Shown one piece after another: positions 12,713-43,588 of a stretch of DNA of 60,805 bases. The position numbers were made by a program, and so were the translations under genes. The stretch lies in IMG/VR virus record IMGVR_UViG_3300025087_000067, positions 1 to 60,805 of that record; one strand, 5' to 3'. The stretch is from a virus (taxonomy: Duplodnaviria > Caudoviricetes). Each line of letters starts with the position of its first letter. The first letter of the stretch is position 1. Below the pieces are notes generated by a model that saw nothing but the letters and a program-made list of their open reading frames with translations, did no database searches and was not told the DNA's origin.

Positions 12713-13033
12713 ATGGCCGGTCTGCCACAGACGCACTACGTGCCCGGAGACGCGAATTACAGCTGTCCGCGTTGCGGGTTCCAAGTCAAGCACTCGACAA
12801 CCAGACGGGAATGGACGAGAACCCGTGTATGTGCCCGGTGCTGGGACCCGATGCCGGTACAGTACAAGCCGGGGTACGGTTATGTCTATAACCGGAATCG
12901 GATACTGGAACCGAGTCCGGAACCCGAACCACTGTACGTCGAGGACATCGTGGCCGCGGATGAACTGGAAGGCATTATCTACCCGGACGATCAATACGTC
13001 GGGACGCCGGATGGCGATAGATTTGGCTGGTAA
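12713..13033 (+). CDS. small Zn-finger protein of the head-tail module
   Basis: CPRCG...VCARCWDP; GGGAG SD. Confidence 0.75.
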   Translation: MAGLPQTHYVPGDANYSCPRCGFQVKHSTTRREWTRTRVCARCWDPMPVQYKPGYGYVYNRNRILEPSPEPEPLYVEDIVAADELEGIIYPDDQYVGTPDGDRFGW

Positions 13034-13035
13034 TC

Positions 13036-26162: not shown

Positions 26163-27482
26163 ATGATGGCTGATACCAATATCACCGCACGTTTTGTCCC
26201 GAATCCCGTCCCACAGTTCTTTGCCACTGACGGCACTCCAGCCGCGGGGTATAAACTGTACCATTTCAATACGGGGTTGACGACCGACAAAGATATTTGG
26301 ACCGAGGAAGTCGATACCAGCGATGAGGCTCACAAGCACGCGCAGCCGATTGTCCTGAACTCCCGTGGGGAGGTTCCGGGCGGCATGTTCGGGACCGGGA
26401 AATACACGTTCGTGCTCATCCCCCCCACTGGCCCAGCAGATGATGATTACAGCGACGCGATCTGGACGATCAACGATGTTGATGCCGTTACGATCCAGGA
26501 CTACGTCAGGGAGACGATCTTCGCCTGTGCGGACGCCGCTGCGGTTCGATCCGCTCTCGGCTTAAACGATGCCGCGCTTTTGGATGACGTGCAGGGCGAG
26601 GCTGGCAATGTCGTGGTCTACGATGAGAATGGGCGATACCCGGCAGAGGATGGGCGGAATATCGAGAATGTGGTCACGGTCGTTAGTGGTACTTGGACTC
26701 CGACGCCGCCTTTGCCACGATCCTATTTGGCGGGATTGAAGATCACGCGGGCGAGTGCTGTGTCTATTACCGTTGAGGTCGGGGTCTGCCGTGACGTCGA
26801 TGATGGCGCAAACATTGAAGTGACGACCCCGATCACGAAATTAACGAATGCCGTGTTTGCCGAGGGGAATAATGCGGGAGGAACATTGGGTGGGGCGGCA
26901 GGTGCGGATACCTGGTACCACGTGTTCCTGATTAAAAAGAGTTCCGACGGTACGGTCGATGTTGTTTTCTCCAGTAATGCGACACTTCCGACGCCACCAA
27001 CGGGATTCGACATCAAGCGCCGGATCGGCGCGTTCATGACCGACGCCACGCCAGAAGTGCTGGATTTCACACAACGCGGGGATTATTTTTGGTTTAATGC
27101 GATTCAGGAAGACGAATCCGCAAAAAGTGTTGGTACTAGCGACACGACAATCACGCTAGATTTTGTTCCAACAACCGTATTGTGTGATGCCATATTAAAT
27201 GTACTGCTAGATAAAACTGCGTCTGCTGATATATCTTTAATGGTGTTTCCAACCACGATGACTGCCGAGACGCCATCTGGAATTTCGACTACTGCACCTG
27301 ATGCCCATGTATCGCCTGGATTCACCTTTAGTTCGGATACAACTGGAGATCAGCCATGCGGAGGACAAATTATTATTCCATTAAATTCCAGTAAGCAATT
27401 TACTGTCCGTGCATCTGAAGCGAGTTGTTATTTTTATGTCTGGACACTCGGCTGGATCGACCGCCGGGGCCGGGACGATTGA
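26163..27482 (+). CDS. tail fibre / tailspike
   Basis: N-terminal 'PVPQFFATDGTP..GYKLY...PIVLNSRGE' attachment domain; 'DTWYHVFLI...RRIG' fibre domain. Confidence 0.85.
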   Translation: MMADTNITARFVPNPVPQFFATDGTPAAGYKLYHFNTGLTTDKDIWTEEVDTSDEAHKHAQPIVLNSRGEVPGGMFGTGKYTFVLIPPTGPADDDYSDAIWTINDVDAVTIQDYVRETIFACADAAAVRSALGLNDAALLDDVQGEAGNVVVYDENGRYPAEDGRNIENVVTVVSGTWTPTPPLPRSYLAGLKITRASAVSITVEVGVCRDVDDGANIEVTTPITKLTNAVFAEGNNAGGTLGGAAGADTWYHVFLIKKSSDGTVDVVFSSNATLPTPPTGFDIKRRIGAFMTDATPEVLDFTQRGDYFWFNAIQEDESAKSVGTSDTTITLDFVPTTVLCDAILNVLLDKTASADISLMVFPTTMTAETPSGISTTAPDAHVSPGFTFSSDTTGDQPCGGQIIIPLNSSKQFTVRASEASCYFYVWTLGWIDRRGRDD

Positions 27483-27494
27483 GGAATTATCAAA

Positions 27495-28310
27495 ATGAGA
27501 ATCTTCAATGCCTTACTGATCCTGCTTCTTACTACCGGACTGTCGTTCGCGCAGATCCTCAAGATTGATGACGCGACGACGGCTGAGGGGGTGGATGGGA
27601 CAGAAAACATCCCAATCTCGAAACTCCCGGCAGGCGGGAACAAGCGGGTGCCGCGTAAGATGACGCCCCAGCAGATTCTCGATGCGGGACTCGACGCCAC
27701 ATTCGGCGATCTCGATCTCCAGGATCTTACCGTTGCGGGGCTCCCGTATAACGCCACTTATTTTACCGAGTTAATCAATGGATCGACCACAACGCTTCAT
27801 GCTCACGATTTCAGGTCCCAGGTTGAGGCTGATGTTACTTCTTATGTCGATTCACTTAACTTGAGTTCTTTGTACGTCCAACGATGGTTAATACTTCCGG
27901 GAGTCTCTACCTTCACGGGGGTGCTGAACGACAGTACGCAGCGGATCAAATACGCCTGGCTTTCGATCTATGGCCGGGAATTCGATTACGACGATCTGTC
28001 AAAACCGCGAGCCTCTAACGACTCGGTCTTCCAGGCGCTGGGGCCGGGCAATGGTACGCATTTCGGGGTCCAGGTCTCGATGGATTACCCATGGTTGAGT
28101 ACCGACGCATCGACACGTCAAACCCTGGGGCAACCCGAGTATATTCTGGCTACCCTGATCTATGCGCTACAAGGTGCTGGTGAACCGGATTACGGGACGG
28201 TATTCTGGCTGTCGTCCCTATCGACAATCACGGTATCCGGTAGTACTATCGAGGTTGATAACATGCAGCCCTTTACATTCTGGAGCCAGGAAACGATGAG
28301 GTTGTACTGA
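27495..28310 (+). CDS. signal-peptide protein with a fibre-like N-terminal motif
   Basis: MRIFNALLILLLTTGLSFA|QILKIDDATTAEGVDGTENIPI. Confidence 0.65.
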   Translation: MRIFNALLILLLTTGLSFAQILKIDDATTAEGVDGTENIPISKLPAGGNKRVPRKMTPQQILDAGLDATFGDLDLQDLTVAGLPYNATYFTELINGSTTTLHAHDFRSQVEADVTSYVDSLNLSSLYVQRWLILPGVSTFTGVLNDSTQRIKYAWLSIYGREFDYDDLSKPRASNDSVFQALGPGNGTHFGVQVSMDYPWLSTDASTRQTLGQPEYILATLIYALQGAGEPDYGTVFWLSSLSTITVSGSTIEVDNMQPFTFWSQETMRLY

Positions 28311-28654
28311 TGAAAAATCCATTACTACGCATTTTATTCCAATATCTGCTCGTGCTCTGTGTATGGGACGTTCTCGCTGTCGCGGTTTTTGCCGACGAAC
28401 CCACGACCATCGTACGCCATCGCGGCAAGGCCGGACTGGCGGAGCGTGTTGAGTCGAAAGGCAAGAGCGCGAAGGAAAACACGGTGCGCGTCCGCTTTGG
28501 CAAGACTATCGGCGACGTGGTGATTCAGGAGCGAGTGGTGGTGAAGGGCGTGGATGTTTTCGAGTCCAAGCCGACGAAAGAACGAAAAGAAACGGCGAAA
28601 GAGCGACCGCAACCGGCGAGCGTTAAGCCTCTGAAAGCGAAGGTGCCAAAATGA
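28310..28654 (+). CDS. basic exported protein
   Basis: hydrophobic N-terminus ending VFA|DE; coupled to neighbours. Confidence 0.6.
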   Translation: MKNPLLRILFQYLLVLCVWDVLAVAVFADEPTTIVRHRGKAGLAERVESKGKSAKENTVRVRFGKTIGDVVIQERVVVKGVDVFESKPTKERKETAKERPQPASVKPLKAKVPK

Positions 28655-28869
28655 ATATCAATGGAGACCTTATATATATTCAGGACTCAGCCCAGCCCTT
28701 GTTGGATTCACCGTCTGAAACTCTCACCAACCTTACGAAGGGATTCAACCGGCGGGAAAGGCGGCTGTCCGAGCGAGGGCGTGAAATTATATCAGACTGC
28801 AAGGGTTCTACTGAGTTTGCACCAAGACCAAGTAGACCGCGATGCAGGAAAGCGAAGGTGGGGCGATGA
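28651..28869 (+). CDS. hypothetical protein
   Basis: ATGA-coupled on both sides. Confidence 0.45.
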   Translation: MNINGDLIYIQDSAQPLLDSPSETLTNLTKGFNRRERRLSERGREIISDCKGSTEFAPRPSRPRCRKAKVGR

Positions 28870-29042
28870 AACCAATAGCAACATTAATTATCCACGGACT
28901 TCCTGAGATGAAGAAGTCCGAACTAAAACGTTTACTGATTTGGCTTTCTACGCAAGCTGAAGCAGTTGTATCGAACCCAAAGGAGTATAACAGGCGCTAT
29001 ACGGCGCAGTTGCACCACAGTAAAGCGCAGGTGAGCCGATGA
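28866..29042 (+). CDS. small hypothetical protein, paralogue of 2410..2598
   Basis: MKPIATLIIHGLPEMKKSELKRLLIWLSTQ...RRYTAQL. Confidence 0.65.
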   Translation: MKPIATLIIHGLPEMKKSELKRLLIWLSTQAEAVVSNPKEYNRRYTAQLHHSKAQVSR

Positions 29043-31834
29043 CCAATCGAACCATAATTTTATTTGTTTTTACAATTTTATTTGCATTAGCCACGCTGGT
29101 GCATGAGGTCTCAGCCGCTCCCGTCCTGCTCGAATCCCAAACGATCAACAACGGCGATGGCACAAAAACTTTTATGACCAGATCTGGCGGATGGTGGCGC
29201 GATGATTCCGGTGCTATCCATGAGACCGTGAGCGAGTTAATAGCAAGCGACGGCGTGTGGGACATTGAGAACATCAGTGCCCCGCACAAAGTCTTTGCGG
29301 CCACGGACGAACCGCGTTGGCGAGTCGATCCCCCGGCAGGTGAAGCCGCTGGGATGGAGATCGCATTCAGCACTGTATCACTCTATTTATTCGACGAGGT
29401 CAATGGCGATGTCGAGAAAACAATCCCATGGACGAGAGCCGGATTGGCCACTACCTACGACGGGACAACCATTAACTATCCTCTGTTTGCAGATACCAAC
29501 TTGTATGTCCTTTCGACTCCCGAAGGATATAAAACAAACTTCTTTGTTGGAGCACCATCCGCAATTCCATCTCCAACCAGCGCAGAGTACTTTGGACCTG
29601 CTGTAGATGTCTCAGATGTTTATTTTGCGATTCGTTACTCGGTATCGAAGTGGCCAGAATCCGCGATGCTCGTAGATGGTGAGCCGTTCGGACCTGGTTC
29701 CATCACGGATGGATATAGCGCCACATTTGGCAATGATCTCTGGATGCTGCCAACCAAAGCCTACCGAAATGTCGAAGGCTTCACTGGTGAGTCGTGGCGT
29801 GATGCAGAGGACGAATCATACGTTTACTATGTATTCGATCGACTGGCTCAAGAGATTCTTGTCCTCGCGCCCTACACGCTGTTTGTAGGCGCTCAGAATG
29901 TAGTCATTGATCCAACGACCTGGACCAGTGGGCAGACGAGCGCTGATGATATGAATGCCTTGAATAGCAACACCACCACGACAAATTACGGAACAGGGGC
30001 TTGGTATGTTGGGTACAATGCATCGGGGCATGAGTGGATAGGGTTGTGTAGATTTTCATCTGTCCCAACGCATTCATACGTTGAGGATGTATCGGCAACA
30101 TTGATATTGAAATATCTAAGTCAGGCTGATACCAGTACGCCTAGTTATCGGTTGAATAGATTGTTGAGGGATTGGTCAGAAACCACATCGACCTGGAACA
30201 TCTATTCAACAGGTAATAACTGGGGTACGGCTGGAGCAAAAAATTCAACGACAGATTATGATGGTGCGGTTTCTAAAACAGGTACGTTTGGAAATGCCAC
30301 GAACTTTGAATTATCAGATGATGCTACGTTCAATGGAATTGTAGAGGGGTGGTTAAATGGGACATACACCAATAATGGATTTGTTATGGCAAACACGTCT
30401 GGTGGCACGAATAATTACAAGAATTTTGGGGCCGACGATGACGCAACATCAACGAATCGCCCTTATTTATCAATCACGTATCGGCGTGGTGCGGGCCTTG
30501 CACAATTTCCTGCCTCAACCAATTTGGACGTTGTAGGAGGATCGCTTGGTTGCAGCATCGTGCTCGATAGTACAACCACTTATTATACTGTTGCCGAAAT
30601 TGCCGATAATGTTTCGGCAACAGTCATAGCATACGATGGTACAGAGTCTCTGGTTGGGGATGGCGCCGATGCGGATTATGCATGGACGGGGCAGTTTGAG
30701 GCAGCGACGATTGCATCAGGCACACAGTATTTTTTGGTCTCCGATATTACGATCAGTGACATTGTATCAGTAGTGCTATCGAACGTTGGTGATATCACAG
30801 AGGACCGTATGTTTGCTATTTCACCAGGTGGCGGGGGCGCAGTCGATCTATCTACGGTAGCTAAAACAACGGAACTAACCGCGGTGCACGATGCGATCCA
30901 ATCCGTCACCACTGATGGCACGTGGGGACTGCCGGCAATCGCTACCCTGGTAGGCAACGCCAGCACGGCGCTAACAGACTGGACTCGATACCAACCGCAG
31001 TCAACTAAGTATCCAATCGTGTGCTATCCCACTGATACCGACATCGGCACGCTGTTTGTGCCCGAGGGCGTGTACTTGCAAGAGGACGCAAGCCTGGAAC
31101 TGCTCGCCTCATTCTCCGCCGATGCCGCTACGCCGGATATGGAAATCAGTGTCAGGAACGATGCGGGAAACGCATTAATTTCATTCAATGCCCGTGATGC
31201 CTATCACGCCGGATCGTGGTCATTCAGCCGTGAGTCCCTGGCGCAGATCGACTCGACGACGCGCTACATCCTGAGAATGCGTTACGAGATTCCATCATCG
31301 GCCTTGACCGCCAGCGGGACCGGAGCCCTGCACGTGATTGGGACGTACCGGAATCCGATGTACGGGACACAGCCGATCAACAACACGGTAGCGATGTACT
31401 CGAAGCAGCTGGAGGGTTCGGAACTCGATGCGGTCCAGGCCTCCATTACCGCCGTCGATGTATCCCTGGCTAGCCTGGATACCGAGATCAATAAGATTAA
31501 CCCGTCGAGCTCGGTAATTTATATGGCGTCCGGTGTGGAGATTCGCGGCGCGACCTGGACGGGTACGCGCTACGAAGCCGCACCGGGGTACTGCAACGTG
31601 GTTACCGGGTGTCCTGCGGTGATCCAGAAGACTTTGGACGATGGTACAAAATGGAATCTGTTCCTGCACTATGAGGAAACGAACCTGAACGTCCCGGTCC
31701 CCGTGGCGTTCGTGGAGGATGGGGCCTGGACGGTGAGCGCCGGAAAAGTTACGGCGGCCAATGCGACCGATGCCGTCCGGGCGACGGGGCAATCGGAAGA
31801 CGTGCTCTGGTACACGGAAGTGAGCGGATTCTAA
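29039..31834 (+). CDS. large exported protein with a DNRLRE (CBM96-like) domain
   Basis: signal peptide ending VSA|AP; 'TTNYGT...RFS...SATL.L...RLLRDWSETTSTWN...WGTAGA...NNGF...NRPYLSITY'. Confidence 0.75.
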   Translation: MTNRTIILFVFTILFALATLVHEVSAAPVLLESQTINNGDGTKTFMTRSGGWWRDDSGAIHETVSELIASDGVWDIENISAPHKVFAATDEPRWRVDPPAGEAAGMEIAFSTVSLYLFDEVNGDVEKTIPWTRAGLATTYDGTTINYPLFADTNLYVLSTPEGYKTNFFVGAPSAIPSPTSAEYFGPAVDVSDVYFAIRYSVSKWPESAMLVDGEPFGPGSITDGYSATFGNDLWMLPTKAYRNVEGFTGESWRDAEDESYVYYVFDRLAQEILVLAPYTLFVGAQNVVIDPTTWTSGQTSADDMNALNSNTTTTNYGTGAWYVGYNASGHEWIGLCRFSSVPTHSYVEDVSATLILKYLSQADTSTPSYRLNRLLRDWSETTSTWNIYSTGNNWGTAGAKNSTTDYDGAVSKTGTFGNATNFELSDDATFNGIVEGWLNGTYTNNGFVMANTSGGTNNYKNFGADDDATSTNRPYLSITYRRGAGLAQFPASTNLDVVGGSLGCSIVLDSTTTYYTVAEIADNVSATVIAYDGTESLVGDGADADYAWTGQFEAATIASGTQYFLVSDITISDIVSVVLSNVGDITEDRMFAISPGGGGAVDLSTVAKTTELTAVHDAIQSVTTDGTWGLPAIATLVGNASTALTDWTRYQPQSTKYPIVCYPTDTDIGTLFVPEGVYLQEDASLELLASFSADAATPDMEISVRNDAGNALISFNARDAYHAGSWSFSRESLAQIDSTTRYILRMRYEIPSSALTASGTGALHVIGTYRNPMYGTQPINNTVAMYSKQLEGSELDAVQASITAVDVSLASLDTEINKINPSSSVIYMASGVEIRGATWTGTRYEAAPGYCNVVTGCPAVIQKTLDDGTKWNLFLHYEETNLNVPVPVAFVEDGAWTVSAGKVTAANATDAVRATGQSEDVLWYTEVSGF

Positions 31835-31846
31835 TCCCGCATGTGA

Positions 31847-32152
31847 ATGGATAAGAAAATGAATGCTGTGGGAAACCGTCGGTCTACGGATAAAAGCGGT
31901 TCAATGATCCGCGAGTGGATCAAAGTGCTGTGGCCGATTATTCTCGTCGGAGCGGCAGCCTATCACTGGATGGGCAGTACCGAGGAACGCCTGACAAATA
32001 TCGGGTTACAGGTCAACGATATCAGTAAACGGCAGATCGAGTTCCTGACCAGTATCGAGCGCTTGAAGACCGATGTCGAGTACCTGAAGAACGATACGGT
32101 ACGGCGTGGAGAGAAATCTGAATTTCAAGCGGATATATCTCCGAAAGGGTAA
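31847..32152 (+). CDS. single-TM coiled-coil protein
   Basis: 'RRSTD' then TM 'VLWPIILVGAAAYHWM' then coiled coil. Confidence 0.6.
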   Translation: MDKKMNAVGNRRSTDKSGSMIREWIKVLWPIILVGAAAYHWMGSTEERLTNIGLQVNDISKRQIEFLTSIERLKTDVEYLKNDTVRRGEKSEFQADISPKG

Positions 32153-32634
32153 TGGTAATGAAACAGAGCGTCGCGCTTATCGGCATTCTCGGGTTTGCGG
32201 TCTTCTTGATTGCGGCCAACGAGCAGGTCGAGGCACAGTGGAAAAAGCTCTTCTGGTCGGTCGATGGCAATCTCGGCGGGTACGGTGGGCTTCGCGAAGG
32301 GCGGGACGATATTGACTACAACTTCGGCGGGGATGCCGTGCCGTATTTCAAAGCCTATCAGTTTGGCGAAGTTGAGTCCTCGACGGATGCCATTCAATCC
32401 GCGAGTTTGGAGACGCCGATACTGTTCGTGCCATCCGATTCATTCATCGGATCGGCGACCCCCGATTTCTGCAACCAGTTCGGTCTCTCGGCGGTGGTGA
32501 CGGCCTCCACGACGGACCCGGTGGATATCGAGTCCTGGCCTACGGTGCCGCCGCGCCTGGTGCTCCTGGTCCCTGGAGACGAACCGGCTTACTATCTGGT
32601 GTCGTGCGTCACGGAATACGAGGTGGGGCTGTAA
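32152..32634 (+). CDS. exported hypothetical protein
   Basis: MKQSVALIGILGFAVFLIAANEQVEA|QW. Confidence 0.6.
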   Translation: MVMKQSVALIGILGFAVFLIAANEQVEAQWKKLFWSVDGNLGGYGGLREGRDDIDYNFGGDAVPYFKAYQFGEVESSTDAIQSASLETPILFVPSDSFIGSATPDFCNQFGLSAVVTASTTDPVDIESWPTVPPRLVLLVPGDEPAYYLVSCVTEYEVGL

Positions 32635-32783
32635 TGGACGCAGTTCCGGCGGACGAGCGGCTACAGGATATCCGCGACCTTGCGGTTGAGGTCGAAACCG
32701 AAGTGCGCGAACCGGATGCGCCGATCCCGCCTCCCGATGATGGGCCAGCCGAGACCGTCCCGCCTAACCCGGTATCCCCATGA
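32634..32783 (+). CDS. 49-aa acidic Pro-rich ORF (below ORF-track cutoff)
   Basis: TAATG overlap with upstream stop and ATGA overlap with downstream start; MDAVPADERLQDIRDLAVEVE... Confidence 0.45.
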   Translation: MDAVPADERLQDIRDLAVEVETEVREPDAPIPPPDDGPAETVPPNPVSP

Positions 32784-34522
32784 AACGCTGGCTAACCGCA
32801 TTCATATTACTTATCCCGGTTTATAGTCATGCAACTGATCCCAATGCAACGATCCTGGGATGGTATTGGTCTGATGGCGGAGAGATGGAGGCAGGTTATG
32901 TGAATGACCACATGACTCCTGCCGACCCCAACTCGTGGCATTCATTAACAGATTTTACCCCACTAACCACATGTACATTTGACTATGATTCGGCTCACGC
33001 TGCTGGAGATTATGTTTATGACTCTCCATTACCTGGTGGAGTGCAATACATTGGCGCAATTATAATCGCCCAAGTTTCTGTTTCGATATTCCCTGACCCA
33101 GGCGCAACATTCCGCAACATCCAGATATTTGAAGATATGTCTATTGGAGCGGCTACAAGTTGCGTGACGATAACCACATTCGGGGAATTGGAATACAATG
33201 ATTGGGAGATTGATAGTATTGGTGGAAGAACAGGATCAGGGTTAGGGGACTTTATATTCTACGTTGCTGTCCCAACCTATGAAAATGATGCGTCTATAGC
33301 CTTGGCGGCTTCTGTCTTCATCTCCATCCACTATACAGGATATGCCGGGGGGGATTTTGATCGAACGATTTACGCCGGATCATGGTCGCCAGTCGTTCGG
33401 TTCGACGATGTAACTCCTGAGCCTCCAGCAAACACACCTACTCCAACACAGACCGTTACTCCGACGCCGACCCTCACGCCGACGAGAACCCCGACGCCGA
33501 CCAATACCCCGTACCCGCAGCTCGATACGCCGATAGTGGGAGTTGCCGGAAACCTCAACGTGGATATATTAAAAAATGCCAGTGTTCATTACGACACAAC
33601 ACAGTACGGATTTGTTCAGTTTGCCTATTATGTTTCGACTGATGGAGGATATACTTACGGTTCGCCTTCATACACAACGTTAACATCATTTACGCTCGGA
33701 CCATATTGGGGCGGTTCTATTTGTGTAAAAGTCATCGCAAAGACAAGCGCGAGTTTCCCTGTTTTTGATAGCGATCCTGGCGTGGGGTGCATGACAGTCA
33801 ATACGCCGACCCCGACCTCAACTCCTACCTCCACCAACACCCCGACTTCAACCTCGACTGCGACGAATACCCCGACCTCGACTTTGACGCCAACTCCAAC
33901 TCCTACCGTTCCGCCGATCTATACCCCGACGTGGACACCCACCAGCACGAGCACCCCAACTTCAACGAGCACGTCAACTCCGACCTCGACGAGCACCCCA
34001 ACTTCGACGAGCACGGACACTCCGACCTCGACCAGCACCAACACTCCGACCTCGACCAGCACCAGTACCCTGACTCCGACGCCAACCCCAACGCTCGCGC
34101 CGGGCGCGGATACCCCGACTCCGACTCCGACCTCAACAGTCACGCCAACCAGTACCAGCACCTCAACCCCCACTTCGACTTCAACACCAACGAACACCAG
34201 CACCAGTACCAACACCCCGACCTCCACCAGCACGAGCACGAATACCCCGACCAATACCCTGACTCCGACTCCAACAAACACCCCCGTGGTCATAAACACT
34301 CCCACGAACACGCCCGTGGCGACCTCAACCCCGACCATGACCTCGACCCCGACAAGCACGTCAACGCCCACTTCGACATTGACTCCAACCCCAACCTCAA
34401 CGGGGACGCCTCTGCCGACCTCCACGCCAATCCGCGAAGTATTCGGCTATATTGTTAAGAAGGTCACGGATACCTGGTGGTTATACAAAGTCGAGGGATA
34501 CCGACCGACGCCAACGCCGTAA
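32780..34522 (+). CDS. exported Thr/Pro-rich mucin-like protein
   Basis: MKRWLTAFILLIPVYSHA|TD; two globular segments; ~210 aa of (TP/TS/TN)n. Confidence 0.8.
   Translation: MKRWLTAFILLIPVYSHATDPNATILGWYWSDGGEMEAGYVNDHMTPADPNSWHSLTDFTPLTTCTFDYDSAHAAGDYVYDSPLPGGVQYIGAIIIAQVSVSIFPDPGATFRNIQIFEDMSIGAATSCVTITTFGELEYNDWEIDSIGGRTGSGLGDFIFYVAVPTYENDASIALAASVFISIHYTGYAGGDFDRTIYAGSWSPVVRFDDVTPEPPANTPTPTQTVTPTPTLTPTRTPTPTNTPYPQLDTPIVGVAGNLNVDILKNASVHYDTTQYGFVQFAYYVSTDGGYTYGSPSYTTLTSFTLGPYWGGSICVKVIAKTSASFPVFDSDPGVGCMTVNTPTPTSTPTSTNTPTSTSTATNTPTSTLTPTPTPTVPPIYTPTWTPTSTSTPTSTSTSTPTSTSTPTSTSTDTPTSTSTNTPTSTSTSTLTPTPTPTLAPGADTPTPTPTSTVTPTSTSTSTPTSTSTPTNTSTSTNTPTSTSTSTNTPTNTLTPTPTNTPVVINTPTNTPVATSTPTMTSTPTSTSTPTSTLTPTPTSTGTPLPTSTPIREVFGYIVKKVTDTWWLYKVEGYRPTPTP
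33799..34430 (+). repeat. degenerate Thr-X coding repeat
   Basis: hexanucleotide-period ACN-CCN/TCN repeats encoding TPTSTSTPT... Confidence 0.85.
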
Positions 34523-34537
34523 TCGGGAAAGCAGAAT

Positions 34538-34858
34538 ATGATGGATGAACGCGGTACAGGGAGCAAGGAAATTGAATTTGGCAAGTTACTTCAGAAGGTC
34601 GATACGATTGGAGATTCCATCGACGATATCTGGTCAAGCCTTAAATCGTATCACTGTGAGTTTCACGCGGGCCTCGACGCCATGGACAAGCGGCGTTTCG
34701 ACGGAGATGAGAAATTGAATAACGAGATTGAGAAAATTAAAACCGAGATGTGGATTCAAAAACTATCGTTGGGTAAAATCATCGGGATACTGATCGCGGT
34801 ACAATCCGTACTTTTGATCGCTATCCAACTCTGGTTAGGCGGGAAGATCAATGTCTGA
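34538..34858 (+). CDS. coiled-coil protein with C-terminal TM (lysis-associated?)
   Basis: TM 'IIGILIAVQSVLLIAIQLWL'; overlaps the endolysin start. Confidence 0.6.
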   Translation: MMDERGTGSKEIEFGKLLQKVDTIGDSIDDIWSSLKSYHCEFHAGLDAMDKRRFDGDEKLNNEIEKIKTEMWIQKLSLGKIIGILIAVQSVLLIAIQLWLGGKINV

Positions 34859-35402
34859 TTCGATCCAGGGAATGATAGCGGCTCTGATCGAGCGGGAAGG
34901 TGGGTTCTCGAACCACCGGGCCGACAAAGGCGGTCCCACGAAATACGGGATCACTCAGCGGACGCTCAGTATCTATCTGAAACGCCCGGTATCGATTGAT
35001 GAGGTCCGGGGCCTCACAAAAGAAAAAGCCGCTGAAATCTACGAACGATTCTATTACCTCGATCCGCATATTGACTTACTGCCACCGGGCTTCCAAGCAC
35101 AGGTGATGGACATGGCCGTGAACCACGGCGCTCCGGATGGAATTCGATACTTCCAGCAGTTCCTAAATACATTCGGCAGCGGATTGAAGGCGGATGGGAT
35201 CATTGGGCCGAAGACCGCAAAGGCTTGTGCGGTGGTTATCAAGCAACTCGGCAAGATCGAGGCAAACAACAGGCTCGCCGAATTCAGACAAGGTGTTTAC
35301 CTCGGAATCGTCGAAAACGATCCAACCCAGATCGGTTTCAGGAACGGGTGGTTGAAACGAGCCAAGGAATTCATCACCCAGGAAGAAGAGGTCTTTGCAT
35401 GA
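34851..35402 (+). CDS. endolysin, glycoside hydrolase family 108 with C-terminal PG-binding domain
   Basis: 'EREGGFSNHRADKGGPTKYGIT', 'DMAVNHG', 'DGIIGPKT', 'FRNGWLKR'. Confidence 0.93.
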   Translation: MSDSIQGMIAALIEREGGFSNHRADKGGPTKYGITQRTLSIYLKRPVSIDEVRGLTKEKAAEIYERFYYLDPHIDLLPPGFQAQVMDMAVNHGAPDGIRYFQQFLNTFGSGLKADGIIGPKTAKACAVVIKQLGKIEANNRLAEFRQGVYLGIVENDPTQIGFRNGWLKRAKEFITQEEEVFA

Positions 35403-36496
35403 GCGTCTCCTGGTACACGGATCGCCGGGCACAGCTCTATAAGCGGCGAAACGAATACATTGCGAGCCTGGCTCAGTGCCAGTCCCGGTACCTGGATATC
35501 CTGCAAAGCATTGGGCTCCCACCTCTGATCGAGCGCTACGGGAAAGATTCGACGTTTCAGACCAACGGCTGGGTATCGCCATGCCCCCGCCTGTTTATTA
35601 AAACTCACGCTCCGATAGGGGTGCAGGACTCGAACCTGGTTTCGGCACACCTGATATACGCCCAGGAAGTCGAGGGTGTGAACGACCATAACCGGAATAC
35701 ACTCAGGATTCTGAAGTCCGGGGACATCTATCAACCCGGATACGGGTTGTTCTGGGCGGGGATCGCCCCATATATGCCAGTCCAGGTTCTGCCGTTCCCC
35801 GTGGACCAGGATGGAGACCTTGCGTTCAATGAGCAGCCTCTAGCGGGCTCCTGGCAGCATATTGCGGAGCGGATCGGACACCCTGGGTATCCAATCAGGC
35901 CCGGAGACGTGATCTGTGCGGAATCCGTCACGGCTCTATTGCGGAAACCTGGCGCGTCAATCTCGTATCCCCCGTGGGTTGAGGGACCCCAGGACGCAGG
36001 AGATGAACAGGCGTTCATCCGGCAGATAACGGACGCCGGGGTGTTCGTGGTTCTTCCGGCGGGGAATGATTATCTATGGGAACAGCCGGATATGGAGCGG
36101 TATCGATCGTTTATCCCCGATGATTATGGGTATCAATCCAGCGGGGCACTTATCGCAACCTGTAACGGCGAGCAACTGATGTACGGTGGCAAGCCCTTTG
36201 GGTGCCGACCCTCTCACTCCCGGACCGTGACAACCCCCATGCGCTATCCCTGTGGGGCGCAAGGCTGGCTCCGGGGCCAACCCGTGGGAACTTCCTGGTG
36301 CGCGCCCCTCGTGGCCGGGACCTTGGTGATGGTCGCCCGTATCTATCAAATCACCCAAGGAACTATTCTTCCGGTCCCAGACTTGCTCCGGGCCGTGACC
36401 TCCGCCCTGACCGTGCAGGAAACCAGTTGGAAGGGCGGGCTGCATCCCGTGGGCCGCCAATGGCGACCGGATCGGATACTGGAATGGTTATTGTAA
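35399..36496 (+). CDS. subtilisin-family (S8) serine peptidase
   Basis: Asp 'IGVQDSN', His 'NDHNRNTL', 'GIAP', oxyanion 'VVLPAGN', Ser 'GTSWCAPLVAG'; ATGA-coupled to the endolysin. Confidence 0.8.
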   Translation: MSVSWYTDRRAQLYKRRNEYIASLAQCQSRYLDILQSIGLPPLIERYGKDSTFQTNGWVSPCPRLFIKTHAPIGVQDSNLVSAHLIYAQEVEGVNDHNRNTLRILKSGDIYQPGYGLFWAGIAPYMPVQVLPFPVDQDGDLAFNEQPLAGSWQHIAERIGHPGYPIRPGDVICAESVTALLRKPGASISYPPWVEGPQDAGDEQAFIRQITDAGVFVVLPAGNDYLWEQPDMERYRSFIPDDYGYQSSGALIATCNGEQLMYGGKPFGCRPSHSRTVTTPMRYPCGAQGWLRGQPVGTSWCAPLVAGTLVMVARIYQITQGTILPVPDLLRAVTSALTVQETSWKGGLHPVGRQWRPDRILEWLL

Positions 36497-36506
36497 ATAA
36501 TCGCTA

Positions 36507-36536
36507 TTGACACTCGTTTTAAAAGAGAGTTATTAT
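36507..36536 (+). promoter_or_regulatory. sigma70-type promoter upstream of the holin
   Basis: TTGACA-N18-TATTAT; overlapped by the imperfect palindrome ACTCGTTTTAAAAGAGAGT. Confidence 0.5.
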
Positions 36537-36584
36537 ATTCTCGACCAAGTTAGAGAGGCGCGTAGAGCCTCGAAGGAGAACGCA

Positions 36585-36833
36585 ATGGATGGTTGGAAAA
36601 ATACCCTGAAAAGCAAAACGGTTCTGGCGGGTATCGTCACGCTGGTCGCTAGCGTCATCGGCATCTTCTGGAAGATCGATCTGACGGAAGACTTGCAGCA
36701 AGCAATTGTCGATCAGATTGCTCTCATTATTACGGCGGTATCCGGTATCGTAGCGATTTACGGGCGCATCACCGCTAAGGCCAAACTGGGCACGCCACCG
36801 GAAACAAATTCGACCACGAACGCAACGGATTGA
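36585..36833 (+). CDS. holin (two TM)
   Basis: AAGGAG SD; 'KSKTVLAGIVTLV...AIYGRITA' holin-like pattern. Confidence 0.75.
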   Translation: MDGWKNTLKSKTVLAGIVTLVASVIGIFWKIDLTEDLQQAIVDQIALIITAVSGIVAIYGRITAKAKLGTPPETNSTTNATD

Positions 36834-36855
36834 TCTACGAAAGTTGGAACATATT

Positions 36856-37539
36856 ATGAAATTACTGACCTTCATATTAACACTTTTCCTGTGCATCCCA
36901 GCATGGCCTGATGCCGATGGGCCGGGGGTGGATACAACTAAGGCCTGGTTCCCCGGATCGGGATATAGTCTGGATGGCCTCGGCCGATTGAAAGCCGATA
37001 CCGCGCAGTCCCGCCAGAACCTCAATGTGGCACATTACGTGATTGGTAGTGCATCTTCCTACGGCATCCAGGGCTGGTTTGTTGCAACTGTGCCCGGATC
37101 AGTCACGAGTGCTACCGTCACATCGGGAGATATATTGTTTGATTTATCCCCCTACGATCTTGGAAATGACGAACGTGTAACGGTTCAAATCTACGGAGAG
37201 TCTCCTGCTGGCACGATCTTTAGCTCGACCACCGGGACAATCCCCACAATCACGGCCAAGGGGACGCCATTCAATCGGTACTATGGAGATGATGCAAATC
37301 TACCCGCTGCATTGATTGCCGACGCGACGCCTCTGAAGTGTGGAATCAGTCGCATTGATACGCACGGTCTCGCATCCCTTGTACTGAATGTCTCGGCAGC
37401 GGCAGCCTACAGCCAAGTGTATTCAACGACGAACGGGGCTTTGCTTCCAGACACACCGGAAACATTTAGTACGGCACCGGCTTACGTCCCGATGCCTGCA
37501 ACCTATCACGTCTTAATCAGCAATCCGAGGTATCCTTAA
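36856..37539 (+). CDS. exported beta-rich hypothetical protein
   Basis: MKLLTFILTLFLCIPAWP signal-like N-terminus. Confidence 0.6.
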   Translation: MKLLTFILTLFLCIPAWPDADGPGVDTTKAWFPGSGYSLDGLGRLKADTAQSRQNLNVAHYVIGSASSYGIQGWFVATVPGSVTSATVTSGDILFDLSPYDLGNDERVTVQIYGESPAGTIFSSTTGTIPTITAKGTPFNRYYGDDANLPAALIADATPLKCGISRIDTHGLASLVLNVSAAAAYSQVYSTTNGALLPDTPETFSTAPAYVPMPATYHVLISNPRYP

Positions 37540-37542
37540 AAT

Positions 37543-37773
37543 ATGGCAATAAGTACGTGGGTGGGTTTGCTAACGGTTTTAGCATCGCTTGGTGTGGCGG
37601 TATTTACATGGTGGGCCTCTCCGACGAGACGGAGAAAGGACCAAGTGTTAGATATTAGCCGCATTGAGGATGAACATGAGAAAAAACGAATTCACGTCCG
37701 GGATTTGCTGGACAAAGATAAATCAGCGTACACTCAAGAGAGGCTCAAGGGCTTCATACGGAACGATAAATAG
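37543..37773 (+). CDS. i-spanin-like membrane protein
   Basis: N-terminal TM followed by a charged helix; overlaps a lipoprotein ORF. Confidence 0.5.
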   Translation: MAISTWVGLLTVLASLGVAVFTWWASPTRRRKDQVLDISRIEDEHEKKRIHVRDLLDKDKSAYTQERLKGFIRNDK

Positions 37774-38065
37774 GCTCCTGCGTCGTCGAGGTCTATTCTC
37801 GACGTATTCTCCTATCCTATTCTGCTTGGTCGTGGCCGCACTTATCATGGGGTGCGGCCACGCCACTGTCCGGCCCGTTCTCCCCGCCTTCCCCGATCCA
37901 GCCAACGACCTGAGCGTCACACCCATTGAATCCGAACCAGGTTACTGGAGAATCCATCTCACCGATCTGGATTCTTTGGTGCGCCGGTGCCAGAATGCCG
38001 AGCGCGACCTGGCAGTGTGCCGAAAACTGCTTGAAATAAACCACATTGAGTATGGAGGAAAGTAA
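37664..38065 (+). CDS. o-spanin-like lipoprotein (start uncertain)
   Basis: hydrophobic stretch ending in lipobox-like 'ALIMGC', then a Pro-rich segment. Confidence 0.5.
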   Translation: MRMNMRKNEFTSGICWTKINQRTLKRGSRASYGTINRLLRRRGLFSTYSPILFCLVVAALIMGCGHATVRPVLPAFPDPANDLSVTPIESEPGYWRIHLTDLDSLVRRCQNAERDLAVCRKLLEINHIEYGGK

Positions 38066-38334
38066 TGAATAAAAATAACGTGTTTCTGAATTGGTTTATT
38101 CTATTCGTCGTCCTGTGTCTCATGTTTTTAACCGTGTTCTATAAGATCAATTTAATGATTAAGGATCACGAGCACCGCACCGAGAACCGCGAGAGGATTA
38201 TAATCCCCCCAGATTCAGAGCGGCTGGACTGGCTCATGGATAATATGGTGTTCAAGCAGGATGGGGGAACTAAGACTGCGAACGAATTATATGAAGAGCA
38301 TATTGCCAGCGCGACGGAAACGGAGAAGCAGTGA
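38065..38334 (+). CDS. single-TM hypothetical protein
   Basis: GGAGG SD; N-terminal TM; 'DSERLDWL'. Confidence 0.6.
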   Translation: MNKNNVFLNWFILFVVLCLMFLTVFYKINLMIKDHEHRTENRERIIIPPDSERLDWLMDNMVFKQDGGTKTANELYEEHIASATETEKQ

Positions 38335-38915: not shown

Positions 38916-39165
38916 AACGCAGCATAGGATTACCCTAGAACTTCCATTTAAATTCGGAACGTTATTATTTGGCGTAACCAAATTTTTCCACAACCACACC
39001 CCGCACTATCAGACCGTACCGTTACATTTCTGGTCGTATACATTATCAAAACATGGTCTGATGATTCTGGTTGATGAGGATAGATTTACGCATAAGTATC
39101 CGATACAGGATTGCTTTGTAGATCAGGATGAAGCTGATGCGGAGTGCGAGCGCCGAAGCAGATAA
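38905..39165 (+). CDS. hypothetical phage protein
   Basis: 'LPFKFG...CFVDQDEADAECERR', similar ending to 52035..52427. Confidence 0.55.
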   Translation: MNIETQHRITLELPFKFGTLLFGVTKFFHNHTPHYQTVPLHFWSYTLSKHGLMILVDEDRFTHKYPIQDCFVDQDEADAECERRSR

Positions 39166-39182
39166 ACGTGCAGGAGAGAACC

Positions 39183-40376
39183 ATGAGCCTCAACAAAAAA
39201 CGCATCGAGAGCCTGGAGCCGCGTAGTCGCGCTTATATTGCCTGGGATAGTTTGATTCCCGGATTCGGTGTTATCGTCTACCCCAGCGGTCGTAAATCAT
39301 TTTGCATTCAGTTCCGGGACCGCTCCCGTAAATCCAGAAAACACGTTATCGGATCCTGTAGCGTGATGCCGGTAGACGATGCCAGGGCTGAGGCCCGGCG
39401 ATGCCTGGCACTTGCAACGCTGGGCAACACGACGTTCCTGAGGCAGGAGACGGCAACCGGAACCCTACTCTCTGACGTATGGGCGCGGTACGAGCGGGAG
39501 CACGCACAGAGTCTCAAATACAGTACGCGAAAAGAGAACGCTCGTCTCTGGGTTGCCAACATCAGTGACGTGCTTGGTGGTCGGCCCGTGGCAACGATCC
39601 AGAAGCGCGACGTGGCCGATATCCACAACCGTTATTTCGATCACCCGTATCTTGGAAACCGGCTCCTATCGTTGCTGAGTCTCTTGTTTGGCCTCGCAGA
39701 ACGCTGGGGGCTCCGGGACGAGGGGACCAATCCATGTGTAGGGATTCAGAGGTACGGCGAAAAATCCAGAGAGAGAGTTCTGACGGATCGGGAACTGGAA
39801 GCGATCGACCGGGATCTCACATCTGGCCGATACCATCAATCCGTGGTTCTAGCGATCAAACTCCTGTTTGTAACCGGATGTAGGCTCCGGGAGATATTGA
39901 ATATGAAGTGGGAGTACATCGACTGGGATGCCCGGTTGATACGGTTGCCGGATTCCAAGACCGGGGCCAAGACCGTGGATATGAACCCAGCCGTTCAATC
40001 CCTCTTGGCTGATGCCCAGCGATTGGAGGGCAACCCGTATGTGTGTTGGGGATCCGTGCATAGCCAGCCACGAATTCAGATACACCGGCCATGGAAGAAA
40101 CTCTGTGAAGCATGTGAAATCCAAGATGTCCGACTGCACGATATTCGCCATACTTTTGCCAGTACGGCCATCTCTCATGGTGCGAATCTGATTGAGGTCC
40201 GTGATTTACTGGGCCATAGCGACGTTCAGACCACACAGCGCTACGCTCACCTGGAGACCGAGGCCCGGCGAGAGGCGTCCAGGAAAATATCGGGGGTAAT
40301 ACAGAGCGCCATGCAGAGACAGCCAACCGGGACTGAGGGCAAAGTCATCAATCTTAAGATTAACAATCACGATTAA
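39183..40376 (+). CDS. int: tyrosine integrase with N-terminal arm-binding (DUF4102-like) domain
   Basis: 'WDSLIPGFGVIVYPSGRKSF'; catalytic 'TGCRLRE', 'SKTG', 'HDIRHTFAS', 'LLGH', 'TQRYAH'. Confidence 0.95.
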   Translation: MSLNKKRIESLEPRSRAYIAWDSLIPGFGVIVYPSGRKSFCIQFRDRSRKSRKHVIGSCSVMPVDDARAEARRCLALATLGNTTFLRQETATGTLLSDVWARYEREHAQSLKYSTRKENARLWVANISDVLGGRPVATIQKRDVADIHNRYFDHPYLGNRLLSLLSLLFGLAERWGLRDEGTNPCVGIQRYGEKSRERVLTDRELEAIDRDLTSGRYHQSVVLAIKLLFVTGCRLREILNMKWEYIDWDARLIRLPDSKTGAKTVDMNPAVQSLLADAQRLEGNPYVCWGSVHSQPRIQIHRPWKKLCEACEIQDVRLHDIRHTFASTAISHGANLIEVRDLLGHSDVQTTQRYAHLETEARREASRKISGVIQSAMQRQPTGTEGKVINLKINNHD

Positions 40377-41801: not shown

Positions 41802-42833
41802 ATGACTGCAACCAAACCAACCAAACCAACTGAAAAACCAGCGGAAACAAAACAGGAAACGAAACCCCTCACGAGCGCAACCGCACCCGTGAGCGTCCGG
41901 CCCGGCACGGAAATCGTGGAGATGCCGAACTCGAATCTCCAAATCAAACTCGGGCCGGATCACTCATTGATCCTCAGGCACAGCGCGGACGGTACGGTAA
42001 AAAAGGCCGCTTACGCCACCGTGCGGCTGAATCAATCGACCGGCGACATCGCGCAGATCGGCTACGGAGATAAAGCTTCGTGCATGATTTGTGAGAGCGG
42101 ATTTATAAAATTGAATTCCGTTCTCGGTCTCGATTGCAAACCAGCATCAACCGCAGACGCAGGATTCAACCCGAATCCCTATTTAGTGAAGGACGCGGCG
42201 GGCAACGTCTCGGGCGCGTACGTGTGTTACGAGGTTACGGGGCCGGACATGAAGGGGAGTATTGCAACGGTACGCCAGACGTTTTTTTTCAACGTCCGAC
42301 AGTATCTCGTCGAGTCTCTCGTTGGGGCCGCGTTCGATAAGACAAAAAAAGACGGGAGTATATATCAAAAAGCAACGGAAGGCTTTTCCTTCATGTCGCT
42401 ATCTGACTATCTCGCCAACCCCATCCCCGATACACAATACATCCCCATCGATGAGCGTGAGGTACTCGTAATCGAGCGCGGTACTCCCGCTCACAAAATA
42501 TACCTGCAGACCTCGATCAAGCTCTGCAAGGAGGCGGATCGCCGTGCTTCCACAATCTGTCGCCGTCTCGCGTTCTCACGGCATCCCGCGATTGCGCGGA
42601 CGAAACCGGAGAGCGTAATTAATGGGGTCGCGGAAATCAATTTGATCGTCTGGATGGTCGATGATTCGGCGGCGAATAATTCTCCAAAAATCGAACAGGA
42701 ATACACGGACGACGCCGGGACGCTCGGAGATGATGCGTTCGACGAATCGACGATCCCATCGCCAGATACAGTTGATCCCGCAACCGGAGAATTCCTGGGC
42801 GATTCATTATTCGGCGGGGAGGAAACGCTATGA
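41802..42833 (+). CDS. putative recombination / ssDNA-annealing-type protein
   Basis: AGGAG SD; 'ADRRASTICRRLAF'; acidic tail with 'VDPATGE'; precedes Rad50-like and UvrD genes. Confidence 0.5.
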   Translation: MTATKPTKPTEKPAETKQETKPLTSATAPVSVRPGTEIVEMPNSNLQIKLGPDHSLILRHSADGTVKKAAYATVRLNQSTGDIAQIGYGDKASCMICESGFIKLNSVLGLDCKPASTADAGFNPNPYLVKDAAGNVSGAYVCYEVTGPDMKGSIATVRQTFFFNVRQYLVESLVGAAFDKTKKDGSIYQKATEGFSFMSLSDYLANPIPDTQYIPIDEREVLVIERGTPAHKIYLQTSIKLCKEADRRASTICRRLAFSRHPAIARTKPESVINGVAEINLIVWMVDDSAANNSPKIEQEYTDDAGTLGDDAFDESTIPSPDTVDPATGEFLGDSLFGGEETL

Positions 42834-43588
42834 GTAATTTTAATCGAGTGAAAAAATATTTCTCAAATGCCATCGAATCTGAGTGGATATCTAAAGATGG
42901 AACCTGGCGTCACAAATCGGTATCAATCCCGCAATCCGCGACGCTGGGCGACGAGGTCGTGCTGGGCAACGAGGTCCGGCTGGGCGCCTGGGTCACGCTG
43001 GGCGACAGGGTCGTGCTGGGCGACAGGGTCGTGCTGGGCGACAGGGTCGTGCTGGGCAACGAGGTCGTGCTGGGCGACAGGGTCCGGCTGGACGACAGGG
43101 TCGTGCTGGGCAACGGGGTCGTGCTGGGCGACGGGGTCCGGCTGGGCGTCGGGGTCACGCTGGGCGTCGGGGTCACGCTGGGCGACAGGGTCACGCTGGG
43201 CGACAGGGTCACGCTGGGCGTCGGGGTCACGCTGGGCGACAGGGTCACGCTGGGCGACAGGGTCACGCTGGGCGACAGGGTCACGCTGGGCGACAGGGTC
43301 CGGCTGGACGACAGGGTCGTGCTGGGCGACGAGGTCACGCTGGATCGGCCACCATTCAGCATGATCCAGCTGAGGTACTCCTGTTATTTTTTTGCGCCCG
43401 GCATGATCGGCGTGGGGTGCGATATCCACCCAGCTACGTGGTGGGAGGACGAGACACAATGGCGACGCTGGGCCGACGAACACAATTACACAACAGAGGA
43501 TCGCGCTGATCTGATCGAGGCAATTGGGTTCTGCATCTCCTGGATGTTGCGGCGTGGATTATATAAAATTGCGGAGAAAAAATCATGA
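42830..43588 (+). CDS. hexapeptide-repeat (left-handed beta-helix) protein
   Basis: ~22 copies of LGD[R/E/G]V[V/T/R]; C-terminal 'IGVGCDIHPATWW'. Confidence 0.85.
   Translation: MSNFNRVKKYFSNAIESEWISKDGTWRHKSVSIPQSATLGDEVVLGNEVRLGAWVTLGDRVVLGDRVVLGDRVVLGNEVVLGDRVRLDDRVVLGNGVVLGDGVRLGVGVTLGVGVTLGDRVTLGDRVTLGVGVTLGDRVTLGDRVTLGDRVTLGDRVRLDDRVVLGDEVTLDRPPFSMIQLRYSCYFFAPGMIGVGCDIHPATWWEDETQWRRWADEHNYTTEDRADLIEAIGFCISWMLRRGLYKIAEKKS
42941..43345 (+). repeat. 18-bp tandem repeat (~22 units)
   Basis: GCTGGGCGACAGGGTC(GT/AC/CG) units. Confidence 0.95.

Follow-up and report, generated by a model that had tools for sequence, protein, structure and literature searches.

Sec-type leaders on seven late proteins of a temperate, short-tailed phage: candidates for outer virion parts that mature in the periplasm

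The viral contig IMGVR_UViG_3300025087_000067 (Duplodnaviria; Caudoviricetes) was analyzed over its full length of 60,805 bases, which is the entire record for this genome and is called the window below. No exact terminal repeat was found in it, and the + strand carries all of its long open reading frames (ORFs). Judged by family searches, the window is a temperate, short-tailed phage of the SU10/933W-like kind with genes for a small and a large terminase, an SU10-type portal (a sub-threshold match), an adaptor and a GroES-like protein; the capsid protein is encoded at 10954, then a 2553-residue giant virion protein with an LPD38 domain at 18495, and the integrase gene at 39144-40376 is followed by replication genes. 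Seven late proteins of this phage, named here by the first position of their ORFs, begin with what look like Sec-type export leaders; one is encoded just behind the capsid gene and six lie in the block 27495-37539. The capsid gene and the seven leader genes, with the basis of each assignment in brackets, are:

10954-11868, + strand: major capsid protein, without a leader (Pfam Phage_capsid_4, expectation value (E) 2.7e-14)
11886-12653, + strand: leader-bearing member of a post-capsid family, predicted lectin-like (ConA/GH16-type) jelly roll (profile, model)
27495-28310, + strand: fibre-like leader-bearing protein of 271 residues; leader of 19 residues, predicted cut SFA/Q (relatives, profile)
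28310-28654, + strand: small leader-bearing protein of 114 residues with a very basic mature chain and a less canonical leader (N-terminus)
29039-31834, + strand: leader-bearing protein of 931 residues with a DNRLRE glycan-binding-type domain (NCBIfam)
32152-32634, + strand: leader-bearing protein of 160 residues; leader of 28 residues, predicted cut VEA/Q (N-terminus)
32780-34522, + strand: leader-bearing protein of 580 residues with two long Pro/Thr/Ser-rich stretches; leader of 18 residues, predicted cut SHA/T (N-terminus, repeats)
36856-37539, + strand: protein of 227 residues with a hydrophobic N-terminus and Cys at residue 13 (N-terminus)

Each of the seven N-termini combines a basic start with an uncharged hydrophobic core, 28310 being the exception described below. 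Lys or Arg stands within the first 2-7 residues in 7/7 and the RR (twin-arginine) motif in 0/7. The core measures 12-17 residues in 11886, 27495, 29039, 32152, and 32780, 15 residues in 36856, and 21 residues in 28310, where it has an Asp inside. A small-residue -3/-1 site was found in six of the seven (AHA/E, SFA/Q, VFA/D, VSA/A, VEA/Q, and SHA/T) and none in 36856. These leaders had been noticed in an initial annotation made by a model from the letters and ORFs of the window, which also described 36856 as less canonical. Both observations are borne out, 36856 having no AXA-type site. The lipobox, at which signal peptidase II cuts, has the consensus [LVI][ASTVI][GAS]C at the end of the core. 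No Cys occurs in the leaders of 11886, 27495, 29039, 32152, and 32780; 28310 (VLC) and 36856 (FLC) have one, and their Leu at position -1 misfits this consensus. Five leaders, those of 11886, 27495, 29039, 32152, and 32780, look classically cleavable by signal peptidase I.

The start codons of the leaders are closely preceded by ribosome-binding sites in six of the seven genes. A strong Shine-Dalgarno sequence, AAAGGAGAG, lies 7 nt 5' of the ATG of 11886, and no ATG, GTG, or TTG was found near the mature N-terminus of this protein. Sites of the GAGG/AGGTGA/AAAGGG type lie 5' of 27495, 28310, 29039, and 32152, and TGGAG is located about 7-11 nt 5' of the ATG of 36856. No ribosome-binding site was found for 32780, the start of which overlaps the upstream ORF (ATGA).

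The enrichment of leaders was gauged with a crude rule of our own and not with SignalP. This rule flags 8 of 85 greedily chosen + strand genes of the window, as compared to 8 of 347 window ORFs that are off-frame or on the minus strand (2.3%) and 19 of 1102 genes (1.7%) in the other phage loci that were fetched. Six of the eight flagged genes are among the seven described here; of the other two, 38065 probably encodes a membrane anchor, and 50420 (RusA) is likely to be a false hit. The rule overlooked 36856, as its longer TTG start at 36844 had been used. In the block 27495-37539, six of about 16 genes bear a leader when 36856 is counted, and five of these six were flagged. The seven proteins share no domain with one another and are not paralogues.

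The most informative of the seven is 11886, which begins 18 nt past the stop codon of the capsid gene and has a predicted leader of 21 residues cut at AHA/E. Of 471 candidate stretches in viral contigs, 409 were confirmed as members of its family. The upstream DNA was long enough for inspection at 60 loci, and 57 of these have a capsid-gene homologue upstream; the gap between the two genes is at most 112 nt in 49 of the 57 and 41-112 nt in most loci. The initial annotation had proposed to check whether homologues elsewhere lack the leader, and for 11886 they do: a hydrophobic N-terminus was found in 0 of the best 80 of the 409 viral relatives (three of these 80 ORFs are cut or of odd length), and the leader is missing in 19 of 20 relatives in bacterial genome assemblies, one of the 20 being a fragment. 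The members encoded by Caulobacter phage RW (gp084c) and by the spring-water phage MW202601, where the gene comes directly after that of the capsid protein, are leaderless as well. The window holds a single member of the family, 11886 itself, and no leaderless copy (family profile against all ORFs of the window: E 6.3e-84, next best 0.03). Furthermore, a cut after AHA leaves Glu-Val ahead of the conserved family start TRFPxGV, which in the relatives mostly stands 2-6 residues after the Met; by this comparison, the predicted cut restores the family's own N-terminus. Our strongest result is that, as far as the sequences tell, the leader of 11886 is a recent gain within a family whose inspected members almost all lack one.

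The arm that follows the leader is well kept. When 11886 is compared with the family majority, 18 of 39 columns match in the N-terminal arm (residues 28-66) and 78 of 188 in the jelly roll, and by this count the arm is as conserved as the core and not relaxed. A model of 11886 built from 37 sequences reached a mean pLDDT of 73.5 with low pLDDT in the arm, as would be expected of a docking arm. The modeled fold superimposes on a lichenase with a VIA-align Z of 17.1 and a root-mean-square deviation of 2.8 Å over 176 aligned residues, and Foldseek returned PL7 lyases, GH16 enzymes, and lectins at a TM score of about 0.5; the best viral matches were unnamed phage proteins. The catalytic strand motif of GH16 is E-x-D-x-x-E. 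It is not among the invariant or near-invariant columns of the 37-sequence family alignment, and 11886 is therefore read as a lectin-like protein and not as an enzyme. No solved phage structure matched the alignment by sequence in a search of the PDB. From gene position alone, we infer that 11886 may be a capsid decoration protein.

The one leader-bearing member among the 20 genomic relatives lies at 5970-7097 of L110, an unrelated long-tailed phage contig that had been binned with a bacterial metagenome-assembled genome. It is a 375-residue protein with a leader-like N-terminus, encoded directly behind a protease-capsid fusion gene, and its relationship to the 11886 family lies in the C-terminal part (28% identity, E 6e-8).

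Five proteins were obtained when 27495 was used in an exhaustive profile search. Four were fetched (the 1588-residue P0016 was left out), and all four have a leader. P0014 shares 62% identity with 27495 over residues 8-105 and has an unrelated C-terminal part, P0015 and P0017 match the C-terminal part only; the conserved N-terminus and swapped C-terminus of the pair 27495 and P0014 thus follow the modular pattern of phage fibres. In P0014, the C-terminal part contains an acidic stretch repeated twice and ending in H-x-H, and 27495 and P0015 have one H-x-H at the matching place. The initial annotation had likened the mature N-terminus of 27495 to the start of phage fibre proteins. We built a profile of the type KIS...G-x-E-x-VP from leaderless phage N-termini in related loci and ranked all window ORFs of at least 45 residues with it; 27495 ranked first with a match beginning three residues past the predicted cut, at an E of 0.019. 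The fibre-like N-terminus is weakly supported. In the Atlas, 27495 has viral fibre clusters as neighbours, with scores (0.76-0.81) that fall short of the bar of 0.9, and the Atlas model is poor (pLDDT 0.37). No match to 27495 was found in GenBank phages, a single-query search of viral contigs gave no loci, and metagenome contigs yielded a 1-kb fragment only; the alignment of five sequences was too divergent for scanning.

The DNRLRE domain that had been proposed for 29039 is confirmed (NF033679, residues 307-480, E 3.2e-15, 56.6 bits against a cut-off of 34). Additionally, an LtfC-like (tail-fibre) beta-sandwich near residues 680-750 was indicated below the Pfam cut-off (E 3e-4). Two relatives match over nearly the full length, P0003 (51% identity) and P0004 (48% identity), and both have a leader. 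There was no match to 29039 in GenBank phages, the 29039 alignment found nothing in viral contigs or genome contigs and nothing meaningful by sequence in the PDB, and a model from three sequences reached a mean pLDDT of 32.9.

Taken together, the inspected relatives of 27495 and 29039 have a leader in 6/6 cases. In all three pairs compared, the leader diverges faster than the mature chain: identical positions number 6/19 in the leader and 42/51 in the mature part for 27495 and P0014, 7/16 and 200/300 for 29039 and P0003, and 9/25 and 208/299 for 29039 and P0004. A pattern that is kept while its sequence diverges is how signal peptides evolve, which is what these alignments point to. In four groundwater or soil runs, the contigs differ so little from the window that they are uninformative on selection in the leaders.

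The leader genes of the block are interleaved with a lysis cassette and with genes for single-pass membrane proteins, and a leaderless fibre candidate precedes the block. These features are:

26163-27482, + strand: leaderless 439-residue protein directly after the giant virion protein (no hydrophobic N-terminus)
31847-32152, + strand: 101-residue protein, one N-proximal membrane segment (peak at residues 27-36), then heptad-like sequence (hydrophobicity)
34538-34858, + strand: 106-residue protein, C-terminal membrane segment from residue 75, overlaps the start of the endolysin gene (hydrophobicity)
34851-35402, + strand: endolysin with GH108 and peptidoglycan-binding domains, without a leader (Pfam E 8e-25 and 8.4e-11; PHROG endolysin E 2.5e-38)
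36507-36833, + strand: holin with two membrane segments, likely start ATG 36582 (PHROG holin families, E 3.6e-6 to 4.6e-4)
37543-38334, + strand: pair of small ORFs (37543-37773 and 38065-38334), both with a single N-terminal membrane segment, between the block and the integrase gene (hydrophobicity)

The single-pass proteins interleaved with the leader genes and with the GH108 endolysin 34851 and the holin 36507/36582 are 31847, 34538, 37543, and 38065. No family match was found for 28310, 31847, 32152, 34538, or 36856. The topology of 31847 resembles that of an i-spanin, and no lipoprotein partner was found for it; the next gene, 32152, does not encode a lipoprotein o-spanin, since its leader has no Cys. 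Judged by its membrane segment and position, 34538 is probably lysis-associated, and 36856 may be either exported or membrane- or lipid-anchored. In 32780, repeats with units of 18-42 nt extend over 33439-34252, and no homologues were found for residues 1-345. The Pro/Thr-rich part of this gene at 33510-34109 varies in length: in contigs of two runs, 598 nt are absent and 10 other letters stand in their place, so that a net 196 codons are lost in frame.

Between the endolysin and the holin, a leaderless ORF of 365 residues occupies 35399-36496. It was considered as a subtilase on account of a subtilisin-like stretch G-T-S-x-x-A-P-x-V-A-G seen by eye, an idea that was dropped because searches of Pfam, PHROG, NCBIfam, and the PDB gave it no support. 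Among the promoter-like sites of the region, the best (11/12 positions) lies at 36507-36536, a short way upstream of the likely holin ATG at 36582. The leaderless 26163 is a probable, weakly supported receptor-binding fibre or spike; it has a sub-threshold Pfam match to 'Mtd second domain' (E 0.049) and no PDB or PHROG match. In one run, a co-occurring variant of 26934-27494 with lower depth carries many substitutions in the C-terminal part of 26163, a skip of 395 nt from 27052 to 27448, and a different spacer before 27495. This variant suggests variation of a putative receptor-binding tip in the population.

The tight packing of the leader genes inside the morphogenesis operon, as opposed to separately promoted morons, had been part of the initial annotation and is upheld by site counts and composition. 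Promoter-like sites number 14 as compared to 14.6 in shuffled sequence, and terminator-like sites 8 as compared to 13.8, both consensus scans being weak tests; the GC content of the leader genes (0.52-0.59) and their codon distance (0.12-0.25) are as in neighbouring genes. By these measures, the leader genes are not morons. Glycosylation of the exported proteins, which had been suggested as well, is not supported: 26 N-X-S/T sequons were observed over the seven mature chains where 22.2 are expected, and 27495 alone stands out with 6 against 1.6.

The capsid protein of the phage shares at most 41.7% identity with that of any GenBank phage (tblastn, annotated capsid proteins), and the C-terminal part of the giant protein matches Stx-converting, Vibrio, and Ralstonia phages at about 32%. 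When the ORFs of nine loci related through the giant protein were compared with the window proteins, the endolysin alone matched. Nearly identical DNA was found in groundwater metagenomes and in some labelled soil; the runs listed include none of RNA. One of the related loci is L003, a 59-kb viral contig related through the giant virion protein only (32% identity), where three consecutive leader-like ORFs (266, 514, and 157 residues; 13001-15827) directly follow the gene of the giant protein; they share no sequence with the window proteins. The head module of the window includes the GroES-like (Cpn10) gene (8525-8833, E 7.8e-11), which is flanked by the portal and scaffold-like genes, and the best-matching Alcaligenes phage has its GroES-like gene at the same place. 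Two tandem repeats were observed. One, with 22.4 copies of an 18-nt unit at 42941-43343, lies within a hexapeptide-repeat transferase-like gene (42830-43588; Hexapep E 1.4e-24), the other, with 23.6 copies of a 15-nt unit at 60449-60802, lies at the contig end and, read on the + strand, encodes a five-residue protein repeat running off the end.

According to textbooks, tailed phages assemble entirely in the cytoplasm. Judged by their leaders, at least five of the seven proteins are probably exported and cleaved. The proteins look to be of the outer-virion kind, namely the lectin-fold 11886, the fibre-like 27495, the DNRLRE protein 29039, the Pro/Thr-rich 32780, and three smaller ones. The reading that we favour, at a probability of roughly 0.4, is that they are outer virion parts whose maturation takes place in the periplasm and which are added to the particle at lysis. 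The seven proteins would be translated late from the morphogenesis operon and pass across the inner membrane; they would then shed their leaders and fold in the periplasm at the same time as capsid, portal, tail, and DNA come together in the cytoplasm. Once the envelope is broken by the holin and endolysin encoded nearby, the two pools would mix, and the exported proteins would dock on finished particles via their N-terminal parts; this last step, which we infer, is the weakest. Docking is favoured because 11886 is the sole, conserved, capsid-adjacent copy of its family, because 27495 has fibre-like modularity, because the genes belong to the operon, and because there is a precedent in the cultured Cellulophaga phage phi10:1 (NC_021802). 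The record of phi10:1 annotates gp091-gp094 as structural 'based on experimental MS/MS proteomics', and in 4/4 of these proteins a basic residue at the start is followed by a hydrophobic core and then by a small-residue site.

Several points weigh against this reading. The association of the seven proteins with particles is putative, and docking after lysis would require efficient binding in a rapidly diluting lysate; in the accessible parts of the searched literature, no paper was found that describes post-lysis docking of exported proteins. The capsid role of the 11886 family is putative and is suggested by gene position and a lectin-type fold. For 27495, the match to leaderless phage N-termini is marginal, and there is some circularity in the resemblance, since the window had served as the template for the pattern by which the training sequences were chosen. 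No virion-like feature is seen in the short, basic 28310, in 32152, or in the Pro/Thr-rich 32780, and long Pro/Thr linkers are typical of secreted or surface proteins. The crude rule has false hits (RusA and the 2.3% of non-coding ORFs) and stands in place of a trained signal-peptide prediction. The host of phi10:1 belongs to another phylum, and its annotation could reflect envelope proteins co-purifying with the particles. Finally, no host is named for the window, because the genomic sequences that match the 11886 family best share no more than 37% identity and come from several phyla.

Nearly as likely as assembly onto the particle is that the genes form an exported late envelope or matrix module of glycan-binding and surface proteins which never join it. 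Such a module may mask or bind receptors or exopolysaccharide, prevent re-adsorption of progeny to debris, exclude superinfecting phages, or loosen a sheath or biofilm ahead of release, and 11886 might be a capsid-side lectin redeployed to the envelope. The glycan-binding-type domains (DNRLRE, and a ConA/GH16-like fold without the GH16 catalytic motif among its invariant columns), the long, length-polymorphic Pro/Thr-rich stretches of 32780, and the interleaved small membrane proteins would all suit this purpose. So would the position of the block between the receptor-binding gene, the lysis genes, and the integrase gene, since exported proteins of temperate phages of the Lom, Bor, Cor, and Llp type sit in this kind of position. 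We also count in favour of an envelope module that, according to the accessible part of a survey of prophage carbohydrate-active enzymes from which structural proteins had been excluded beforehand, 5% (3261/64,678) have signal peptides (PMC13507307). However, the block shows no excess of promoters or terminators and no foreign composition, the family of which 11886 is the window's one member is otherwise fixed behind the capsid gene, the N-terminal arm of 11886 is conserved to the same degree as the core, the 27495 family combines a conserved N-terminus with a swapped C-terminus as in virion fibres, and leader-bearing proteins are reported in phi10:1 particles.

Export without release is improbable. 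In that case, the leaders would be uncleaved signal anchors that tether the proteins to the inner membrane with their bulk in the periplasm, where they could act, for example, in lysis timing or envelope disruption in concert with the holin, the endolysin, and the small membrane proteins. The 21-residue core of 28310 and the lack of an AXA-type site in 36856 would allow anchors in these two, and the genes of the block are interspersed with those for lysis and for three or four clear single-pass proteins (31847, 34538, 37543, and 38065). However, five of the seven cores have only 12-17 residues followed by classic small residues at -3/-1, and a short core with such residues is typical of cleaved leaders and not of anchors. 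Moreover, known lysis factors do not resemble proteins that are 580 and 931 residues long and have lectin-type domains, and 32152 lacks the lipobox Cys which an o-spanin needs. Least probable, and largely refuted, is that nothing is exported and the leaders are wrong start codons or chance hydrophobic extensions on ordinary cytoplasmic virion parts. The gap of 41-112 nt behind the capsid gene in most relatives is about the length encoding the 11886 leader, which could therefore have arisen from spacer DNA. Against a mere artefact stand the strong ribosome-binding site before the ATG of 11886 with no alternative start near the mature N-terminus, the ribosome-binding sites before five of the six other leader starts (32780 being the one without), the leaders kept in all six inspected relatives of 27495 and 29039, and the density of leaders in the block, six of about 16 genes with five flagged, as compared to the 2.3% of non-coding ORFs hit by the crude rule.

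Two wider proposals follow the reading of periplasmic maturation and are put forward tentatively, as less likely than not. Tailed phages may be able to use two-compartment assembly, with the core built in the cytoplasm and the outermost parts routed via Sec and the periplasm to dock at lysis; and a virion protein might enter such a route by one N-terminal extension that replaces the spacer behind the capsid gene, as in the 11886 family. Leader-bearing proteins in L003, in the long-tailed phage contig L110, and in phi10:1 suggest that the route may have arisen repeatedly. If periplasmic routing is true, disulphide formation, periplasmic chaperones, and envelope glycans would become available to fibre proteins and to outer proteins of the capsid, completion of the particle would be tied to lysis, and annotation rules that treat a signal peptide as a mark of a non-structural protein would mislead. 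If the proteins stay in the envelope, they would constitute an unusually large late host-surface module built from virion-type parts, which would also be new. The question is made testable by 11886, with one family that occurs with and without a leader and an exact predicted N-terminus.

Known Sec-dependent late phage proteins are spanins, SAR (signal-arrest-release) endolysins, and proteins of the Lom, Bor, Cor, and Llp types, and decoration of finished capsids is known as well. The accessible parts of the searched literature yielded no description of homologues of capsid-adjacent or fibre-type tailed-phage proteins with cleavable leaders. Lom and Bor of lambda, Llp of T5, and Cor depend on Sec, as is predicted for the window proteins, and their genes likewise adjoin those for receptor binding. 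Their site of action is the host envelope, and they do not belong to the particle; they are small lipoproteins or outer-membrane proteins that often have promoters of their own and are made in lysogens. In contrast, the window proteins reach 931 residues, resemble virion-type families, show no separate promoters, and mostly lack a lipobox. SAR endolysins and the i- and o-spanins are late Sec-dependent proteins encoded in or near the lysis cassette, where several genes of the window lie as well. However, the window endolysin has no N-terminal hydrophobic segment, the i-spanin-like 31847 is followed by the 160-residue 32152 without a lipobox Cys where a spanin pair would have its partner, and no spanin resembles the large lectin-type proteins. 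PblA and PblB of the Streptococcus mitis phage SM1 are tail-fibre-type proteins which act also on the host surface; they are leaderless and reach the surface of their monoderm host through permeabilisation by holin and lysin, whereas the window proteins have leaders.

For 11886, the decoration proteins gpD of lambda, Hoc and Soc of T4, Dec of phage L, and pb10 of T5 offer a further comparison, as they bind finished capsids and 11886 adjoins the capsid gene and is modeled with a flexible N-terminal arm and a globular domain. By analogy, 11886 could in principle be added after shell assembly. None of these decoration proteins is known to carry a signal peptide, and their binding takes place in the cytoplasm; 11886 differs also in its predicted ConA/GH16-like jelly roll, which is not a gpD, Ig, or OB-type fold, and its capsid binding is putative. 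The closest parallel to the leader-bearing block is phi10:1, on the leaders of which no comment was found in the NC_021802 record or in the searched literature. This phage is long-tailed, infects a host of the Bacteroidota, shares no sequence with the window proteins, and was not seen to encode a capsid-adjacent leader-bearing protein. Like the leader genes of the window, however, gp091-gp094 encode consecutive proteins of the tail-fibre region at the end of the late operon, and their N-termini are leader-like.

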